A stretch of DNA of 64,000 nt from Candidatus Bathyarchaeota archaeon (GTDB lineage: Archaea > Thermoproteota > Bathyarchaeia > Bathyarchaeales > Bathycorpusculaceae), in assembly GCA_963832745.1 (NCBI GenBank), contig CAWHVC010000004.1, positions 167,754-231,753 on the forward strand, written 5' to 3'. Of this stretch, positions 1,990-33,035 are shown piece by piece. The notes beneath the pieces were generated by a model. It was not told the origin of the DNA and did no database searches. It saw only the letters and a program-made list of their open reading frames with translations. The position numbers and the translations under genes are program-made. Each line of letters begins with the position of its first letter. Position 1 is the first letter of the stretch.

Positions 1990-3486
1990 TTAAGTTATGT
2001 TCCAGAAGTAAATGTGTGAGTATTTGCCTGTTACAGGAAACGCTGGGTCATCATAAACTATGTCCAGTTTTATTCCGTATTGGTCAAGTTTGCTTTGTAC
2101 TTGGTTCCAGATTTGGGTTGAAGTGGCGTTTGGTTCCCATATTCCCCAGATAACGTCGCTGGGGTTTCGCATGCCCCACCCGTAGTTTTCGGGCAAAACC
2201 AGCACTGCTTCCGCCTTATCGCTTCCGTGAATTTCTGCTGGGTTCTGGACAACTTCTTTCCAGAAGCGTTCGAGGGCTTGAAAATGCTCTTCCTGCAATG
2301 TACCGTAAGGTCCAGTCATATCTTCGGCATAATTGAATATAACAACATAATCCGCTCCAGCCTTGTAGGAAGTTTTCATTTGGTCAAACATTTCAGCCCC
2401 ATCAGTCAAATATGGCGCGTGAGTGTATTTCCAAGTGATTATTGTTCCCCAACTTTTTCCCTGCAAGTTGGCTGCTCCACGGGCCAAACTGATTTCTTGA
2501 CTTACCGAATTGTTCCATGCAAGCTCAGCAAGAACCATGTCATAACCGCTCTGAAGGTCCCACCAGTAAAGTGCATAATCAGAAGTGAAAATCGGGAAAG
2601 ACCTCCCCTTAAGGTTACGTTGCCTGATTAAACCATCTACAAAACCGCTGGTTTTGTCAACATAGAAGTTAGCCGCGGTGTTGTAGTCGCGTAAGGGGTT
2701 TTTGTCTTTCGCTTGTTGATAAGTTTCTAATTGAGCGATGATGTCTGAACCATTTTCCATTGTGTACCTACTGAAACTGACTATTTCCGAAGAAATGATG
2801 CCTATACCCCCTTTTGCTGTTTTTTTCTCGATCATTTCAAAAAAGGTTATTGTGCCGTCTGTCTTGTAGGTTGTCGAGTTGGTTACTACACTATAGGCGG
2901 CGATGAATGAGGGGTCGTTATTATTAGAAAACAATGTGGAACTAGTAGAGTTTGTTTTAGATACCGTTATTGTGCCATTTGGATAAAAACTTCTCGAAAT
3001 ATCAGTTTCATCTGTATTGACTGTGCCGTCTTGCCATTTTGTAACTGACATATCTTCGCCTAAAACTAGCCAGGTAGTGTAACCGTCAAGCATTTTGCCT
3101 CCAGGTTCATCCTCATAATAGATTCCTGCAAACATTTTGCCCCACCGTTGCTCAGCAGCACTTATCCAGGTTGCATCTGAAATGCCGAAGGCTGAAGCAG
3201 CAGCGAAATGTAAACCTTTGGAGACTGCGTAATCGCCAATTTCGTTTACGGCGGTATTGTTTCCTATTATTGTAAATCCTGATTGTACTACAAAGAGGTT
3301 GGTGTAGTTTGCTACTTTGTCTATTAGCAGTTTGGCGTCTTGCACAGTGTTTCCGCAGTAAGTTACGCCTACAAGGAAGGGTTTTTGCTCTTCGCCTTCA
3401 CCGAAGTCTGTGTAGGCAACGAAGATTAGAGAGCTTACAAAGAGGATGCAAATAATTGCTGATGAAAGAATTTCTTTTCGGGTCAC
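1990..3486 (-). CDS. Membrane-anchored secreted protein, same paralog family
   Basis: GTG start, signal-anchor ILSSAIICILFVSSLIFVAY. Conserved blocks KPFLVGVTYCGNTVQDAKLLIDKV, YEDEPGGK, MVLAELAWNNS, ITWKYTHAPYL. The central ~100 aa are not alignable by eye to the neighbours. Confidence 0.85.
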   Translation of the reverse strand: MTRKEILSSAIICILFVSSLIFVAYTDFGEGEEQKPFLVGVTYCGNTVQDAKLLIDKVANYTNLFVVQSGFTIIGNNTAVNEIGDYAVSKGLHFAAASAFGISDATWISAAEQRWGKMFAGIYYEDEPGGKMLDGYTTWLVLGEDMSVTKWQDGTVNTDETDISRSFYPNGTITVSKTNSTSSTLFSNNNDPSFIAAYSVVTNSTTYKTDGTITFFEMIEKKTAKGGIGIISSEIVSFSRYTMENGSDIIAQLETYQQAKDKNPLRDYNTAANFYVDKTSGFVDGLIRQRNLKGRSFPIFTSDYALYWWDLQSGYDMVLAELAWNNSVSQEISLARGAANLQGKSWGTIITWKYTHAPYLTDGAEMFDQMKTSYKAGADYVVIFNYAEDMTGPYGTLQEEHFQALERFWKEVVQNPAEIHGSDKAEAVLVLPENYGWGMRNPSDVIWGIWEPNATSTQIWNQVQSKLDQYGIKLDIVYDDPAFPVTGKYSHIYFWNIT

Positions 3487-3575
3487 TGTGGTTCGCTTCT
3501 AAAGATAAGTGTTGTCTTGTTAAATAATTCTTTTCTATAAATCCCATATTTTTGGCAAAATAATGGAAAGGAAGG

Positions 3576-5147
3576 TTAAGTGTCATCCCAATAGTAAACA
3601 TCAGCATACTTGCCTTCAACTGGATGGGCTTGGTCCTGATAGACTATATCTAGTTTAGTGCCATACTGCTCCAGTCTGTTTTGTAGCTGTGTCCATATTT
3701 GACTTGACGTAGCGTTTGGTTCCCATATTCCCCAAATGACGTCAGATGGGTTACGCATCCCCCAGCCATAGTTGCAGGGTAAAACCAGTGTTGCTTCTGC
3801 TTTGATACCTCCCTGAATTACCTTAGGGTTTTGGACTACCTCGTTCCAAAAACGTTCTAATGCTTGAAAATGCTGTTCTTGCAGGGTTCCATATGGTCCT
3901 ATGGCGTCTGCTGCATAGTTGAAAAGTATGACGTATTGGGCTCCGTTTTCATAGGAGGTTTTCATTTGGTTAAAAATTTCGTCACCGTCGGCAAGGTATG
4001 GAGCTTGAGTGTATTTCCATGTTAAGATTGTTCCCCAGTCTTTGCCTTGCAAATTGGCTGCTCCACGAACTAAAGCGATTTCTTGGGCAACAGTATTATT
4101 CCAGCCAAGTTCCGCAAGAACCATGTCATATCCGCTCTGGTAGTCCCACCAGTAAAGACCATAATCGGCAGTAAAAATGGGAAAAGACCCTTGGCTCATA
4201 TTTAATTGCAACTTTGAATTTGCTAATTTTGCTTTGGTTTGGTTTGTGAAGACGTTTGCGGCGCCGTTGCAGTCTGATATGGGGTTTTTGCTCATTGTTT
4301 GTTGGTAAGTTTCTTCTTGAGCAATACGCTTTGAGCCATTTTCCATTGTATAAAAGTCGTTATGTAATATTTCGAATGAATTTTCCCCAATTGGAATAGG
4401 CCAAATAATATGGTTCATACCATTTTCATCAGTTGAATTTGAATCTTGAGCTTTTTGGATAAAATTCTTGCCTGTCGAATTAGAAATTATTTCCTTTATT
4501 GTCATTGAACCATTTGGATCGTAAACAATCGTGTCGGCTGTAGTTACTGTGTTCCATATTGTAATAGAAGAATTGTTTGGGTCAGTAATAGAGGTATCAA
4601 TCGAGTTACTTCTCATTTTAATAATGGTGCCGTTTGGGTAAACATCAACAGAAAATCCCGTATTGGGCTCATTGTAAGAGACTCTTCCATCTTCATTTTT
4701 TACAATAATGGAACTAGAATTTTCATAATTCAAGCAGATTGTGGTGCCATCAAGAAACTTTCCTGCTGGTTCATCATCATAATAGACTCCTGCAAACATG
4801 CTGCCCCACCGTTGCTCAGCAGTGCTTATCCATGTTGCATAAACAACATTGTAACTTGTAGTCGCAGCAAAGTGTAATCCTTTAGTTACTGCGTAATCCC
4901 CTATCTCGTTAATGGCTTGGTCGTTTTTAATTAGGGGTCCTGAATTGAGGACGAACAGGTTTGTGTAGTTGGAGACCTTGTCGATTAGGGTTTTAGCGTC
5001 TTGTACGTTGTTTCCGCCGTAGGTTACGCCTACAAGGAAGGGTTTTTGTTGTTCGCCTTCTCCAAAGTTTGCTTGACTGACAAATATTATTGAGCTTGCA
5101 AGGAGGATGCAAATGATGGCTGATGAAAGTGATTCTTTACGGTTCAA
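3576..5147 (-). CDS. Membrane-anchored secreted protein, same paralog family
   Basis: TTG start, signal-anchor LSSAIICILLASSIIFVSQ. Conserved blocks KPFLVGVTYGGNNVQDAKTLIDKV, YDDEPAGK, MVLAELGWNNT, LTWKYTQAPYL. It has the longest divergent central insert. Confidence 0.85.
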   Translation of the reverse strand: MNRKESLSSAIICILLASSIIFVSQANFGEGEQQKPFLVGVTYGGNNVQDAKTLIDKVSNYTNLFVLNSGPLIKNDQAINEIGDYAVTKGLHFAATTSYNVVYATWISTAEQRWGSMFAGVYYDDEPAGKFLDGTTICLNYENSSSIIVKNEDGRVSYNEPNTGFSVDVYPNGTIIKMRSNSIDTSITDPNNSSITIWNTVTTADTIVYDPNGSMTIKEIISNSTGKNFIQKAQDSNSTDENGMNHIIWPIPIGENSFEILHNDFYTMENGSKRIAQEETYQQTMSKNPISDCNGAANVFTNQTKAKLANSKLQLNMSQGSFPIFTADYGLYWWDYQSGYDMVLAELGWNNTVAQEIALVRGAANLQGKDWGTILTWKYTQAPYLADGDEIFNQMKTSYENGAQYVILFNYAADAIGPYGTLQEQHFQALERFWNEVVQNPKVIQGGIKAEATLVLPCNYGWGMRNPSDVIWGIWEPNATSSQIWTQLQNRLEQYGTKLDIVYQDQAHPVEGKYADVYYWDDT

Positions 5148-5285: not shown

Positions 5286-5477
5286 TTGACTGTGAATAAC
5301 GATAAGGTTGTGGGCAGTTGGAAGCGCAAGCAGACAAAAAAGGTTGTTAAGGCAGCTAAGAAGCCAATTTTCAGGCATCGAGAAATGAAGGGTACTGGTC
5401 TTCGTTGGGCCTCTCAAACTTTTCCTAACCGTGCAGGTATCCGAAACATGAAGAAACATGCCAAAAAAGAAAAGTAG
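5286..5477 (+). CDS. Small, very basic ORF (63 codons, TTG start), product unknown
   Basis: K/R-rich translation (GSWKRKQTKKVVKAAKKPIFRHRE...MKKHAKKEK), co-directional with and upstream of rps19e. I recognise no family. Confidence 0.3.
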   Translation: MTVNNDKVVGSWKRKQTKKVVKAAKKPIFRHREMKGTGLRWASQTFPNRAGIRNMKKHAKKEK

Positions 5478-5702
5478 CCGCCTCGAAAATTTGGAAAAAC
5501 CCTTTATACCGCCCTGATATATGATTATTTTAAGCAGTGTAAGTGGTTTCGCCTCAACGTATCGCCCAGATTGGCGGTAAAGTTGTTACGGGGCGGTCTA
5601 TAGTTTGAAAAACTGCACAATAGTTAACAAGTTGTTCAGAGAATATTTATATTAGGCTTCACTGTTTTACTGCAAGGAAAAACTAAAAGGGACAAGAGCA
5701 TC

Positions 5703-6167
5703 TTGACAACTCCTCATGACGTACCCGCATCCAAGTTCATCGATAGGTTAGCAAAGTACTTGAAAGAAAATGTCGATGAAGTTCAACCATTGCCATGGAC
5801 AAGCGTAGCTAAAACAGGCATGCACGTTGAAAAACAGCCACAGAATCCAAACTGGTGGTATGTTCGCAGCGCATCTGTTCTGCGTAAAGTTTACATTCAT
5901 GGTCCAATCGGCATAGAAGACCTAAGGGCTGATTATGGTGGAAGAAAAAACCGTGGCAGCAAACCTGACCGCGTAAAAAAATCTGGCGGAAGCAGCATCC
6001 GCAAAGTTCTCCAACAGCTCGAGGCAGCAGAATTAATCGTTACCAGCCGTCCAGAAGGAAGAAAAATGTCTCCAAAAGGACGCAAACTACTTCAAGAAGT
6101 TGCTGGTGACCTGCAGAAAGAAATGATAAAAACTGTCCCAGAGCTCAAGAAGTATCAAGGCGAATAA
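5703..6167 (+). CDS. rps19e: 30S ribosomal protein S19e (eS19)
   Basis: HDVPASKFIDRLAKYLKEN...NWWYVRSASVLRKVYIHGPIGIEDLRADYGGRKNRG is the eS19 signature. TTG start, TAA stop. Confidence 0.9.
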   Translation: MTTPHDVPASKFIDRLAKYLKENVDEVQPLPWTSVAKTGMHVEKQPQNPNWWYVRSASVLRKVYIHGPIGIEDLRADYGGRKNRGSKPDRVKKSGGSSIRKVLQQLEAAELIVTSRPEGRKMSPKGRKLLQEVAGDLQKEMIKTVPELKKYQGE

Positions 6168-26558: not shown

Positions 26559-26634
26559 GCTGGGGTGGCCGAATCGCTGAGGCGGTAGCCTGCAGAGCTG
26601 CTTTATATGGGTTCAATTCCCATCCCCAGCTCCA
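26559..26634 (+). tRNA. tRNA-Cys (anticodon GCA), CCA encoded, no intron
   Basis: Hand-folded. Acceptor GCTGGGG/CCCCAGC; D arm GCCG..(A)GGC; anticodon stem GTAGC/GCTGC with loop CTGCAGA; T arm ATGGG-TTCAATT-CCCAT; discriminator U73 (the Cys identity element); then CCA. Confidence 0.9.
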
Positions 26635-28904: not shown

Positions 28905-29173
28905 CGCGTCAACTCCACGTCAAAAAAAGGATATCCAGTTTTTTGATAATCCCAAAAGAAGATAATTGAGCGTGTTTATTTCTGTGTTTGCTTGGCTAAT
29001 AAATTATGTTAAATAAAACGGTTTTCTGCAGTTACACTTAGGGGCAAAATGTTAATTTACTTTCCGTTCGACTGGCAATATTTCTGTATTTTAGAACGGT
29101 TTTAAGTATTATATAAGAGAAAAACAATAGATAGACCCTTGGTCTAGCAAGTTAGATAGCCTATAATTTATGG

Positions 29174-30778
29174 GTGCTAAACATGAACGCTGATGGCAAA
29201 AGATTCCGAGATGCAATAATCGAGTTTTTACCTGATGCCACGTTTGTCATCGATTTGGACGGTAAAGTCATTGCTTGGAACAGCGCTATGGAAATGCTAA
29301 CCAGCATTCCCCGAAGCGACATGCTTGGAAAAAGCAATTACGAATATGCCCTTCCATTCTACAAAGAACGCAGACCCATGCTGGCAAACCTAATTTTCTT
29401 GCCTCAAGTTGACTTTGAAACGAAATATGACTCTATAGAAAGAATCGGCGACGCGCTTGTTGTAGAAATTTATTTACCCGATTTTAGACCAGGCGGCGTA
29501 TACCTCTGGGCTAAAGCCAGTCCACTCTATGATTCACAGGGCGAAATCGTCGGTGCCATCGAAACAATCAGAGACATAACAGACCGGAAACGAGCAGAAG
29601 AAGAAATTATTCGATCACGCCGCAGTCTTGCAGACATTCTCAGCTTCCTTCCCGATGCCACGTTTGTCATCGATTTGGACGGTAAGGTCATTGCTTGGAA
29701 CAGCGCCATGGAAATGTTAACCAGTATACCTGCAGACTCCATGCTTGGAAAAGGTGACTATGAGTACGCAATCCCATTCTATAAGAAGCGGCGACCAATG
29801 TTGGCGGACCTAGTTTTCATGCCTGAAACAGAATTAAAAGAGAAATATAACAATGTTGAACGCAACATGGACACTCTTGTTGTCGATGTTTTTATTCCAG
29901 ATTTTCGGGTGGGCGGTGCCTACTTCTGGGCTAAGGCAAGTCCCTTGTATGACCCTAACAGTGGAAATGTAGTGGGCGCAATTGAAACAATCCGGGACAT
30001 AACCGAACGCCGAGAACTTGAAGGACGGCTTGCCCGTTCAAATGCCGAGCTACAGATTGCTGCAGAAATACAGAAAAGCTTTCTACCCGAGGCGATTCCT
30101 CAAATTCCAGGTTTTGATGTCGCAGCCCGCACCGTTATGGCAAAGGAAGTTGGAGGAGACTTCTTTGACGTAATCCCATATGAAGTTATGACTCTTGATA
30201 AGGGCATGCATGGCATGCTCGTCGCGGATGTATCGGGAAAAGGTGTTCCAGCAGCCCTCTTTATGGCGTTGTCAAGGATTGTTGTTCGAGTGAACGCTCT
30301 TTGGCATCATGACCCCGCGAAAGTAATTTACAGTTCCAACAACACCATAACCCAAGATTCAAAATCCGGCATGTTCGTAACCCTCTTTTTCGGACTGCTA
30401 AACGAGACAAACCGGTCCCTTACCTATGTTAACGCTGGACACAACCCGCCGCTAGTATTCCGGAGCCATGATGGGTCAGTTGAGAAGCTCATGCCTACAG
30501 GAATCGTGCTTGGGGCAGTCGAGAATTTGGAGTATAAGTCCAGAAGCGTAAAGATTGCGGAAGGCGACGTTGTTGTCATGTTTACCGATGGCGTTACGGA
30601 ATCAATCAATTCGCAGAGTGAACTGTTTGGAGAAAAGCGGCTTATAGCGGTTATTCAGAAAAACGCTGGCCTTTCGGCTCAGGGGATTCTTGAGCAGATT
30701 TTGGTTGAAGTAAACGCGTTTGCGGGAGATATGCCGCAGGCAGATGATATCACGTTACTTATTATCAAGGGGACCTGA
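29174..30778 (+). CDS. PAS-PAS-PP2C (SpoIIE/RsbU-type) serine phosphatase
   Basis: Two tandem PAS units (LPDATFVIDLDGKVIAWNSAMEMLTSIP twice), then the PP2C core AEIQKSFLP...EVGGDFFDV...VADVSGKGVPAALFMA...FTDGVTES...ADDITLL. Confidence 0.85.
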   Translation: MLNMNADGKRFRDAIIEFLPDATFVIDLDGKVIAWNSAMEMLTSIPRSDMLGKSNYEYALPFYKERRPMLANLIFLPQVDFETKYDSIERIGDALVVEIYLPDFRPGGVYLWAKASPLYDSQGEIVGAIETIRDITDRKRAEEEIIRSRRSLADILSFLPDATFVIDLDGKVIAWNSAMEMLTSIPADSMLGKGDYEYAIPFYKKRRPMLADLVFMPETELKEKYNNVERNMDTLVVDVFIPDFRVGGAYFWAKASPLYDPNSGNVVGAIETIRDITERRELEGRLARSNAELQIAAEIQKSFLPEAIPQIPGFDVAARTVMAKEVGGDFFDVIPYEVMTLDKGMHGMLVADVSGKGVPAALFMALSRIVVRVNALWHHDPAKVIYSSNNTITQDSKSGMFVTLFFGLLNETNRSLTYVNAGHNPPLVFRSHDGSVEKLMPTGIVLGAVENLEYKSRSVKIAEGDVVVMFTDGVTESINSQSELFGEKRLIAVIQKNAGLSAQGILEQILVEVNAFAGDMPQADDITLLIIKGT

Positions 30779-30826
30779 GCCTGTTATGTCAGAAGAAAAC
30801 CCTAAAAACCCTGGAAGGAGACAACC

Positions 30827-31252
30827 GTGAAAAGCTTTGAGCTTACCGTGGAGAGCAGGCTGGAAAGTCTTCCTAAGATAAGCGCGTTTATTGATGAAGC
30901 AATGCAGCACTATAACGTACAAAACGTAAAAGAAGTGTATGCAGTCCAGTTGTCGGTTGATGAAGCCTGCACTAACATAATTAAACATGCATACGCGAAC
31001 AAAAGCGATGGAAAAATTGTTATTCGCTGCACGCTGTGTAAGGCACCTGACAAGTTTGTAGTGGAAATAATGGATTGGGGTTGCCCTTTTGACCCAACAA
31101 CTCTGCCGACGCCTAATACGAAAAGCGGTTTGGATGAACGAAAGGAAGGCGGTTTGGGCATCTTTTTTATAAGAAAATTCATGGATGAAGTTAGCTATCG
31201 TAGAAGTGGCGATATGAATTTATTAACAATCGCCAAGTATATAAAAAAATAA
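30827..31252 (+). CDS. RsbW/SpoIIAB-type anti-sigma-like serine kinase (HATPase_c)
   Basis: N-box VDEACTNIIKHAY, G-boxes MDWGCPFDP and EGGLGIFFIRKFMD. 141 aa. Confidence 0.8.
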   Translation: MKSFELTVESRLESLPKISAFIDEAMQHYNVQNVKEVYAVQLSVDEACTNIIKHAYANKSDGKIVIRCTLCKAPDKFVVEIMDWGCPFDPTTLPTPNTKSGLDERKEGGLGIFFIRKFMDEVSYRRSGDMNLLTIAKYIKK

Positions 31253-31270
31253 TTACTGGAGAAAGAATAC

Positions 31271-31606
31271 ATGGAAACAAGGACAGAAGGAAATACAACC
31301 ATCGTAGTAATGGTTCCCAGATTCGACGCTTATACTGCCAATGACGTTGATACAGCATTAAAAGAGTTACTTGCGAAGGGCACCAAAAAAATAATCTGTG
31401 ATTTCTCCCAAACCGATTATGTAGCCAGTGCTGGCCTTAGGGTTCTTTTGTCTTCAGCTAAAACCCTGCAAAGGCAAGGCGGCCAAATTGTTTTATGCTC
31501 AATGAAACCTTACGTTCATGAAGTTTTTGAAATATCTGGGTTTACTCAGATTTTCAAAGTTTTTGAATCTAAAGAAGAAGCCTCTAAAAGCCTCAACCAA
31601 CCATAA
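31271..31606 (+). CDS. STAS-domain anti-anti-sigma-like protein (RsbV/SpoIIAA type)
   Basis: IICDFSQTDYVASAGLRVLL (phosphorylatable Ser context) and VHEVFEISGFTQIFKVFESKEEA. Confidence 0.8.
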   Translation: METRTEGNTTIVVMVPRFDAYTANDVDTALKELLAKGTKKIICDFSQTDYVASAGLRVLLSSAKTLQRQGGQIVLCSMKPYVHEVFEISGFTQIFKVFESKEEASKSLNQP

Positions 31607-31627
31607 AGAGGAGAAGCAAGCAGTTAA

Positions 31628-32854
31628 ATGTCAACTATAAAGTCTGAAGCAGAACGATGCCTAAAATGCAAAGTGCCCAGCTGTTCCAAGGGTTGTCCTG
31701 TTGGAACTCCTATCCCTCAGGTTACGACAAAGTTCTTGGAAGGCAAATTGGAAGAAGCAGGCAGGCTGCTTTTCAACAACAACCCCCTATCCGCCATAAC
31801 CTCAATCGTTTGTCCGCATGACAGAAACTGCAAGGGTCACTGCATACTAAACAAGAAAGGTCAACCGGTTGAATTCTATAAAATAGAGCAATACATCTCA
31901 CGTTTCTATTTGGAAACCTTCCAGCCACCGCAGGTTGAGAGAAACGGCAAAAAAGTAGCAGTTGTAGGCGCTGGCCCAGCTGGAATAACAGCGAGCATAA
32001 TTTTAGCGAAAAAGGGTTATTCAATCACTTTATTTGAGGAAATGGACAGCATCGGTGGAGCCATGCGTTATGGCATTCCAGAGTTTAGGCTACCTAGAAG
32101 CATCTTTGAGTTTTACAGAAAAATTCTTGACTCTTTAAATGTTAAATTCCGTCCCAACACCCAGATAGGCACCAATTTTAGCGCTGAAGACATGTTTCTT
32201 GATGGTTATGACGCTGTCCTTATTTGCACGGGCACAAACCGACCGAACCGTTTCGGTCTTTTAGGTGAAACTTTAGGGCACGTGCATTTTGCTGTTGACT
32301 ACTTGAGGTCTCCTGACGTCTATAAGCTGGGAAAGAACCTTGTGATTCTTGGAGCAGGAAACGTGGCTATGGATGCCGCAAGAACCGCCATCAGAAAGCA
32401 ACACGTCGACGTTACCATTCTCAATTACAGGGCACCAGAGGATGTAACGGCAGATAAAGCGGAAGTGGAAATGGCAATGATTGACGGCGTAAAACTGCTT
32501 CATAACTGCCAAGTCGTCCGTATCATGGATAATTCTGTCAAGTGCGTAAAAGTTGATAAAATCATCGCTGAAGACGGTTCAGTGAGTATAAAAGAGGATT
32601 TTAAATCTGCGTTTGAATTACCTGCTGAAGCTGTAATTATTGCGATCGGTCAAGGTCCCGGTTCAGACGTAGTAAGCGTCGGAGGCGCCAAAGTCACACA
32701 GAAAGGACTTTTACAGGCGGACGAGTTTGGTCAAACGTCACAAGAAGGAGTATTCGCTGCAGGAGACGTCGTTACTGGCCCTAGAACGGTAATCGAAGCC
32801 ATTGCGTCCGCAAAAAAAGCATCAGAAAAAATTGAAGAATACTGTAGCAAATAA
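31628..32854 (+). CDS. GltD/PreT/NfnB-family NAD(P)H-dependent Fe-S flavoprotein oxidoreductase
   Basis: N-terminal Cys clusters (CLKCKVPSCSKGCP, CPHDRNCKGHC); dinucleotide folds KKVAVVGAGPAGITAS and LVILGAGNVAMDAA; GVFAAGDV. Confidence 0.8.
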   Translation: MSTIKSEAERCLKCKVPSCSKGCPVGTPIPQVTTKFLEGKLEEAGRLLFNNNPLSAITSIVCPHDRNCKGHCILNKKGQPVEFYKIEQYISRFYLETFQPPQVERNGKKVAVVGAGPAGITASIILAKKGYSITLFEEMDSIGGAMRYGIPEFRLPRSIFEFYRKILDSLNVKFRPNTQIGTNFSAEDMFLDGYDAVLICTGTNRPNRFGLLGETLGHVHFAVDYLRSPDVYKLGKNLVILGAGNVAMDAARTAIRKQHVDVTILNYRAPEDVTADKAEVEMAMIDGVKLLHNCQVVRIMDNSVKCVKVDKIIAEDGSVSIKEDFKSAFELPAEAVIIAIGQGPGSDVVSVGGAKVTQKGLLQADEFGQTSQEGVFAAGDVVTGPRTVIEAIASAKKASEKIEEYCSK

Positions 32855-33035
32855 TTATATTCAATTAGTCGACCAGCAACTAATCTTCAAAATAAGCGTG
32901 GATAATGCTCATTTTTCCTCTAGCTTCAATCGTTACCTTTTGTTTCTTTTTTATTGTCAGGCATTAAATCGGTTAGCTGATTGACCAAAATCTTAATACA
33001 AATTAACATGTCTTTTTATCCGACTGGAATTTAAC

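Follow-up and report, generated by a model that had tools for sequence, protein, structure and literature searches.

A cassette of four genes is found in the window analysed here, a 64,000-nucleotide (nt) stretch of contig CAWHVC010000004.1 (assembly GCA_963832745.1) from a Bathyarchaeia archaeon. All four genes are on the plus strand and were assigned from the open reading frame list and Pfam. They encode a PAS-PAS-SpoIIE phosphatase of 534 amino acids (aa) (positions 29174–30778), an RsbW-type kinase of 141 aa (30827–31252), a STAS protein of 111 aa (31271–31606) and an NfnB/GltD-like iron-sulfur flavoprotein of 408 aa (31628–32854). The initial annotation had placed four open reading frames here and had described the first three as a PAS-PAS-PP2C phosphatase, an RsbW-like kinase and a STAS protein; the coordinates and strand match exactly, and the Pfam assignments agree with the description. 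The switch formed by these three proteins probably controls enzymes and not transcription, because the intact trio shares a putative operon with a flavoenzyme and relatives of the trio are paired with other enzymes.

The genes are closely packed, with intergenic gaps of 48 nt between phosphatase and kinase, 18 nt between kinase and STAS and 21 nt between STAS and flavoprotein. Shine-Dalgarno-like motifs of the GGAG type are present 5′ of the start codons of kinase (GTG), STAS (ATG) and flavoprotein (ATG); both the start of the oxidoreductase 21 nt after the STAS stop and the GAGGAG that precedes it are as first described. The 269-nt AT-rich spacer 5′ of the phosphatase gene contains a TATA-like octamer, TTATATAA (29109–29116, plus strand), a candidate archaeal promoter for the operon. 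On the 3′ side, a 181-nt spacer follows the flavoprotein gene and is in turn followed by an unrelated CcmF/cbb3 module. This spacer holds a T-rich tract, TTTTGTTTCTTTTTTATT (32938–32955, plus strand), which may represent an archaeal oligo-T terminator and the end of the operon; when the cassette is read through, such a tract is present only 3′ of the fourth gene. The packing suggests that phosphatase, kinase, STAS and flavoprotein genes form one operon, in agreement with the co-transcription that the initial annotation considered probable. Scans for sigma-70 promoters (11 found, 8.3 expected from shuffles) and for hairpin terminators (5 found, 4.6 expected from shuffles) stay close to chance and are in any case not applicable to archaeal signals.

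Domains and conserved residues of the four proteins

The phosphatase displays a SpoIIE domain (PF07228, 174.4 bits, E-value = 3.3e-51, cut-off 25) and PAS_4 in two stretches. The PP2C domain, of the SpoIIE/RsbU type, spans residues about 347–532 and aligns to the phosphatase structures of Rv1364c (3ke6) and RssB (3es2) in the PDB; NCBIfam gives a weak match to SiaA (43 bits). The translation contains GGDFFD, DVSGKG, TDG and DD, which we take to be the PP2C motifs. A tandem duplication with a period of 420 nt (window 29231–29950) accounts for the two PAS domains. The copies share 74% identity at the DNA level and 66% at the protein level, and a 29-residue stretch is identical between them. This is the only SpoIIE gene in the whole genome.

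The sensor part of the phosphatase is exchanged among relatives. PAS-PAS is present in the window, in the orthologues from two other Bathyarchaeia genomes (G157 and G217) and in the relative L141. The phosphatases of G063, G299, L024 and L037 carry a 5TMR-LYT membrane sensor domain, and that of L143 a dCache-HAMP sensor. In G299 (L105:3069–4874) the 5TMR-LYT sensor, the SpoIIE phosphatase and an RsbW-type kinase are fused into a single protein of 601 aa, with a STAS gene directly upstream.

The kinase shows a HATPase_c_2 domain (PF13581, 106.3 bits, E-value = 1.5e-30). Among solved chains it matches RsbW (6m36, 2.1e-10) and SpoIIAB (1tid, 3e-3), and it scores 64.6 bits against the NCBIfam RsbW model, under the equivalog cut-off of 145. 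The N, G1 and G2 boxes align to those of RsbW and SpoIIAB. Residues E46 and N50 of the N-box, D83 and G85 of G1, and G108, G109 and G111 of G2 are invariant in 31/31 and 40/40 homologues; a loss of catalytic residues, raised in the initial annotation as an argument against a working switch, is thus not seen in the homologue alignments. Homologues that bear a name are labelled Candidatus Bathyarchaeia, Bathyarchaeota or Bathyarchaeum. The small RsbW-type kinase is single-copy, as none of the nine other HATPase_c_2 matches of the genome exceeds a weak 28.8 bits, and all belong to frames of 416–1022 aa.

The kinase start is likely the GTG at 30827, which is situated behind GGAGA. A short frame starting with the ATG at 30786, MSEENPKNPGRRQP (window 30786–30830), runs into a stop and is out of frame with the kinase body. 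This short frame resembles the N-terminus of the orthologous kinase P0003, MSEENLKNPKESFELT... The N-terminal extension is variable within the family, and in the window gene the former extension was apparently lost through an indel.

The STAS protein gives PF01740 with 73.2 bits (E-value = 1.7e-20), as well as STAS_2 and a weak PrpR_N match, and scores 75.3 bits with TIGR00377, over the cut-off of 53.45. Pfam shows no DUF1987 match for this adaptor. The protein aligns end to end with SpoIIAA structures. The sequence DYVASAGL, in which a phosphorylatable serine had been proposed at first, is present at residues 49–56, and its Ser53 (codon AGT, 31427–31429) falls in the phospho-serine column of SpoIIAA. 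That column is Ser in the wild-type chain 1th8_B and Ala in the mutant chain 1tid_B. D19, S53, G55 and L56 are invariant in 30/30 aligned relatives. There is one STAS gene in the whole genome, that of the cassette.

The flavoprotein displays Fer4_20 (PF14691, 89.5 bits) and Pyr_redox_2 (PF07992, 140.6 bits) domains, with no GGDEF match in Pfam. The closest solved chains are NfnB (4ylf_B, 2.4e-71; 5jca_L), followed by GltD (2vdc_G). TIGR01316 (gltA) gives 300.9 bits, under its cut-off of 471.75, and none of the NCBIfam models among the best 25 of 58 reaches its cut-off. The likeness to the NfnB/GltD small-subunit family consists of the two-cluster Fer4_20 domain, the Rossmann domains for flavin adenine dinucleotide (FAD) and for reduced nicotinamide adenine dinucleotide (phosphate) (NAD(P)H), and the retained Cys and Gly motifs: C11, C14, C19, C23, C62, C68 and C72, together with GAGPAG and GAGNVAMD, are invariant in the alignment (22 sequences, 16 common Bathyarchaeia paralogs). 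However, the family is about 470 aa long whereas the window protein is compact at 408 aa, without the N-terminal approximately 45 residues and the 12-residue and 6-residue inserts of the common paralog.

This common NfnB/GltD-like paralog, 470–480 aa long and 36–41% identical to the flavoprotein, is found in 179 genomes of an even set of 301 Bathyarchaeia genomes. The window's own genome (G000) has it on another contig (G000:C5:195193–196473, a 485-aa frame, 40% identical), and this gene is probably the housekeeping copy. No NfnA, GltB or SudB partner gene adjoins the cassette flavoprotein, which is flanked by STAS on the 5′ side and by CcmF on the 3′ side; no NfnA search was made beyond these neighbours.

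The host genome and the four-gene block in Bathyarchaeia

Archaea are without sigma factors, yet some have complete anti-sigma, anti-anti-sigma and phosphatase sets. The host genome is 3.02 Mb in 5 contigs and 99% complete. It was first taken for a TBP/TFB host without sigma factors, and the gene content bears this out. There are 2 TBP genes, from 4 repeat matches, and 4 TFB genes, from 8 strong TFIIB repeat matches; a ninth match is weak (24.9 bits, in a frame of 142 aa). The search for Sigma70_r2 (PF04542) gives 0 matches in this genome and is positive in 10 bacterial controls. Models of sigma region 4 give only short helix-turn-helix matches of 21–31 bits, which are considered generic because archaeal control genomes give them too. 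Thus the genome displays no sigma-like protein, the presence of which the initial annotation had weighed: region 2 is absent and the region-4 matches are generic.

The puzzle of a switch trio in an organism with no sigma factor, as posed in the initial annotation, is already in print, because Anderson et al. (2009) reported SpoIIAA-, SpoIIAB- and SpoIIE-like genes in three sigma-less Methanomicrobiales and called their targets undeterminable (PMC2686161, available text). The same portion of the paper states that the trio was not found outside Methanomicrobiales. The cassette described here has the same three genes, a sigma-less archaeal host and the same question of a target, but it belongs to another phylum, and its trio forms a conserved block of four genes together with an enzyme gene. 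Among the matches listed, trio loci are found in Bathyarchaeia, Methanobacterium and Methanotrichaceae.

Within the 301 genomes the cassette is rare. At a threshold of E ≤ 1e-10 the kinase is found in 5/301 genomes including G000 (4/152 of the high-quality genomes, 4/107 when counted by genus), and in 2/15 genomes of the window's own genus. The SpoIIE family is present in exactly those five genomes, once in each. The order phosphatase-kinase-STAS-flavoprotein recurs in G157, of the same genus (flavoprotein 83% and STAS 77% identical), in G217, of another genus in the same family (80% and 78%), and on the metagenome contig L142 (76% and 67%). The neighbourhood singled out in the initial annotation is therefore conserved in two further genomes and one metagenome contig.

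The flanks of the block are different in each of the three genomes. The window's genome has an MFS transporter upstream and CcmF downstream, G157 has a nitroreductase upstream and a PQQ-repeat protein downstream, and G217 has a divergent pair of STAS and thiamine pyrophosphate (TPP) enzyme genes upstream and a kumamolisin-like protease downstream. In comparisons with the G157 and G217 orthologues, the ratio of nonsynonymous to synonymous substitution rates (dN/dS) is 0.06–0.16 with dS > 1.3 in 7/8 gene comparisons, the eighth being too saturated. Phosphatase, kinase and STAS are each intact and subject to purifying selection. Flavoprotein paralogs of >75% identity are found, besides the window's, only in G157 and G217 among the 301 genomes, always directly after STAS. 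Of six loci of the Bathyarchaeia clade that are readable beyond STAS, four (the window, G157, G217 and L142) have the flavoprotein at this position. Close Bathyarchaeia loci are under-sampled: among the matches listed, at least 7 metagenome loci reach 62% identity or more, and most of these contigs end before the gene after STAS. The cassette has probably been kept as a four-gene unit in Bathyarchaeia.

A tree of 104 phosphatase domains, made by a quick method, unrooted and with SH-aLRT support only, shows two separate archaeal clades, one of Bathyarchaeia (98) and one of Methanobacteriota (99). Around both of them are sequences of Chloroflexota, Ignavibacteriota/Bacteroidota and Sumerlaeota, and a bacterial origin of the Bathyarchaeia cassette is probable; the direction of the transfer is unproven because the tree is unrooted. 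Base composition shows no sign of a foreign island, with a GC content of 0.40–0.44 over 28–34 kb compared with 0.38–0.47 in the whole window. A tRNA-Cys gene is present at window 26559–26634, 2.5 kb upstream of the cassette. In two metagenome relatives, L172 and L188, a phage-type integrase gene (2961–3905 and 3270–4220, respectively) lies approximately 1–2 kb upstream of a STAS-phosphatase-kinase set. Taken together, the tRNA gene and the integrase genes may be a trace of mobility.

Genes that follow STAS in related cassettes

The gene 3′ of STAS was classed for 126 STAS genes at loci retrieved by kinase similarity, among the matches listed; 30 loci retrieved with the flavoprotein as query are left out of this tally. 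An ALS-like TPP enzyme follows STAS in 7/126 cases, an RsbW-GNAT fusion in 3/126 and the flavoprotein in 2/126 (4 with L103 and the window itself). Other genes are found in 9/126, and by Pfam six of these nine encode four patatin-like phospholipases, one isoamylase-type enzyme and one periplasmic binding protein. The next gene is on the opposite strand in 8/126, the contig ends in 7/126, another STAS follows in 1/126 and a gap of over 200 nt in 1/126. In relatives with the same kinase family, the enzymes other than the flavoprotein start within about 1–60 nt of STAS.

The seven ALS-like loci comprise three from archaea (a Methanobacteriota archaeon, a Methanobacterium sp. and the Bathyarchaeia genome G217), two from bacteria (a Dehalococcoidia bacterium and an unclassified bacterium) and two near-identical metagenome contigs. 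Their TPP enzymes are 61–80% identical to each other and are found 1–20 nt after STAS. The order kinase-STAS-patatin-like phospholipase is present in four Anaerolineae loci (L041:10629–11829, L044:7440–8629, L096:1594–2794 and L099:7429–8609), with a gap of −4 to 43 nt between STAS and lipase. G217 combines a single kinase gene with two STAS genes, and each of these directly precedes an enzyme gene of its own. Two features appear to be new here: the four-gene block of Bathyarchaeia and the repeated placing of an enzyme gene after STAS, seen for at least five enzyme families. Partner switches in archaea as such, and enzyme-directed logic in bacteria, have been described before.

Two further arrangements are found among the relatives. 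In relatives of the Dehalococcoidia type, a GNAT acetyltransferase is fused to a second RsbW-like domain (L075:4109–5587, L145:4133–5608, L155:1671–3194; L023:7174–8664). The fusion adjoins one to three acetyl-coenzyme A (CoA) hydrolase/transferase genes in addition to a STAS/phosphatase/kinase set, and may be connected with acyl-CoA metabolism or with protein acetylation. In Methanobacteriota, a gene for an OGG-type 8-oxoguanine DNA glycosylase is convergent and directly after the kinase gene (L024:7470–8450, L037:7495–8475, L091:7407–8387).

Output of the switch

The cassette agrees with the Bacillus systems RsbU-RsbV-RsbW/sigma-B and SpoIIE-SpoIIAA-SpoIIAB/sigma-F in its three protein families, in the catalytic residues and in where the phospho-serine lies. 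It differs from them in that the window genome has no sigma factor and the proteins score under the RsbW, SpoIIAB and SpoIIAA equivalog cut-offs. The place of Bacillus sigB or sigF is occupied by the flavoenzyme gene.

The SiaABCD genes of Pseudomonas aeruginosa are in the order A-B-C-D. The initial annotation gave a sigma factor as the alternative partner of the kinase in Bacteria, and this is the canonical case but not the only one, as SiaABCD, HsbA-HsbD and BgrV-BgrR act on enzymes (PMC8457831, accessible sections). There, the unphosphorylated STAS-like protein SiaC binds and activates the cyclase SiaD, which phosphorylation by the kinase SiaB prevents, and HsbA-HsbD and BgrV-BgrR exert a similar sigma-independent control of diguanylate cyclases. 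Like the window cassette, SiaABCD combines a PP2C phosphatase and a kinase with a small phospho-adaptor next to an enzyme and includes no sigma factor. However, SiaC belongs to DUF1987 and is STAS-like only in structure, whereas the window adaptor is a genuine STAS protein (PF01740). Sia acts on a diguanylate cyclase; the putative target in the window is an NfnB/GltD-like flavoprotein, and the host is an archaeon. The STAS-bearing glycosyltransferase All4160 is likewise switched by phosphorylation, through the phosphatase HenR and a kinase (PMC13555669, available portion). In HsbA-HsbD, BgrV-BgrR and All4160/HenR, so far as these sources describe them, a phosphorylatable STAS domain directly controls an enzyme, as is proposed here, but all are bacterial and their targets (diguanylate cyclases and a glycosyltransferase) are outside the enzyme families seen in the present loci. 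The Synechocystis IcfG cluster was considered as a sigma-free precedent and dropped, since the accessible part of a 2025 paper ties IcfG to a SigC cascade.

The cassette is read here, with a probability of about 45%, as a sigma-independent switch similar to SiaABCD, in which the kinase and the PAS-phosphatase would set the state of Ser53 in STAS, and STAS would in turn gate the putatively co-transcribed flavoprotein. The RsbW-type kinase would phosphorylate STAS on Ser53. The PAS-PAS-PP2C phosphatase would remove this phosphate once a signal reaches its cytoplasmic PAS domains; at a guess, the signal may be redox, oxygen or a metabolite. The predicted output is the NfnB/GltD-like iron-sulfur flavoprotein, whose activity or assembly would be gated through direct binding to STAS in one phosphorylation state, most likely the unphosphorylated state. 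In favour of this reading are the intact single-copy trio, the lack of a sigma factor, the close packing of the genes, the conserved block, the repeated placing of enzyme genes after STAS, including the two pairs of G217, and the bacterial precedents.

Several findings weigh against it. The linkage is narrow, consisting of four loci that are kin and belong to one family-level clade. In the close relatives L141 and L137 the DNA after STAS is readable and no flavoprotein is present there; L141 instead has an HSP20 small heat-shock gene (5403–5933) on the same strand, 336 nt further on. The next best flavoprotein paralogs, of 47% identity, are in G127 and G102, which have no cassette at all. In the tally of 126 STAS genes the next gene is the kinase in 78/126 and the phosphatase in 10/126. 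A Rosetta-stone search of longer STAS relatives, a weak type of evidence, shows no STAS-enzyme fusion: one protein was found at E ≤ 1e-8 among 232 candidates, and it is a STAS-kinase fusion. A tree of the STAS proteins groups them by downstream enzyme, as 4 labels need 3 changes, the minimum, and 0/200 shuffles are as low, but with 111 columns and related rows this represents clustering only and not co-evolution.

A transcriptional output is unlikely, although it is the canonical role of a kinase family whose RsbW (6m36) and SpoIIAB structures are matched here. The kinase would then sequester a TFB or TBP paralog or a helix-turn-helix protein in the manner of an anti-sigma factor, and the flavoprotein would be regulated cargo or a bystander. 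The number of TFB and TBP genes leaves room for specialised factors, and L141 and L137 keep the trio in loci that do not have the flavoprotein. However, no transcription-factor gene is found in or beside the cassette in any annotated archaeal locus, and archaeal region-4-like proteins are without sigma regions 2 and 3, with which SpoIIAB makes contact (PMC2686161, same portion). Control of transcription also leaves unexplained why STAS, and not the kinase, is paired with each enzyme, and why G217 has two STAS genes per kinase. PAS domains often serve redox sensing, and the flavoprotein itself could be the input, an option raised in the initial annotation, reading the redox state of NAD(P)H or ferredoxin and signalling via STAS or the PAS phosphatase to an output elsewhere. 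An NfnB-like protein with two iron-sulfur clusters and FAD and NAD(P)H sites, with no adjoining partner of the NfnA/GltB type, would suit such a role. This arrangement is nevertheless quite improbable, as the phosphatase has sensors of its own, which change among relatives, and the ALS-like, patatin and isoamylase enzymes found after STAS are unlikely sensors.

The adjacency could also be without functional meaning, the trio and the flavoprotein gene having been transferred or inherited together while the switch acts on an unlinked target. The patchy occurrence of the trio, with kinase and phosphatase in the same five genomes, its nesting among bacterial sequences and the close kinship of all four linked loci are consistent with this. 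Yet synonymous sites are saturated (dS > 1.3) while the block is intact and the flanks are replaced in all three genomes. In addition, the flavoprotein paralog is found only behind STAS in the 301 genomes, and enzymes of at least four other families have come to follow STAS in the same way. A meaningless adjacency is therefore considered very unlikely.

The reading of the cassette as an enzyme-gating switch may be extended, more tentatively, to a class. It is possible, although doubtful, that the cassette is a member of an undescribed and widespread switch class in which a dedicated STAS protein directly gates a central-metabolic enzyme (NfnB-like, ALS-like, patatin, GNAT or isoamylase), horizontally shared by Chloroflexota-type bacteria and several archaeal phyla. 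The literature searched, which does not cover most subscription journals, contains no experimental follow-up on archaeal partner switches and nothing on partner switching in Bathyarchaeota. No paper pairing a STAS-type antagonist with patatin was found, NfnB-like, ALS-like and isoamylase not being searched, and the words archaea, enzyme and metabol are absent from the review of STAS-only proteins PMC8256260.

Bathyarchaeia are abundant in sediment and soil. We know of no genetic system for them, so a biochemical handle on their regulation is valuable. The STAS-flavoprotein and STAS-ALS-like pairs are small soluble proteins suited to in vitro tests, and the fact that the enzyme 3′ of STAS varies between lineages offers a testable answer to the question of archaeal switch targets. 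If the proposed reading is true, these enzymes would be the first concrete targets for archaeal 'anti-sigma' modules, a question dating from 2009, and redox and carbon enzymes in archaea would be under a transcription-independent control driven by serine phosphorylation. If STAS gates the enzymes, the module would be a portable post-translational controller of metabolism.

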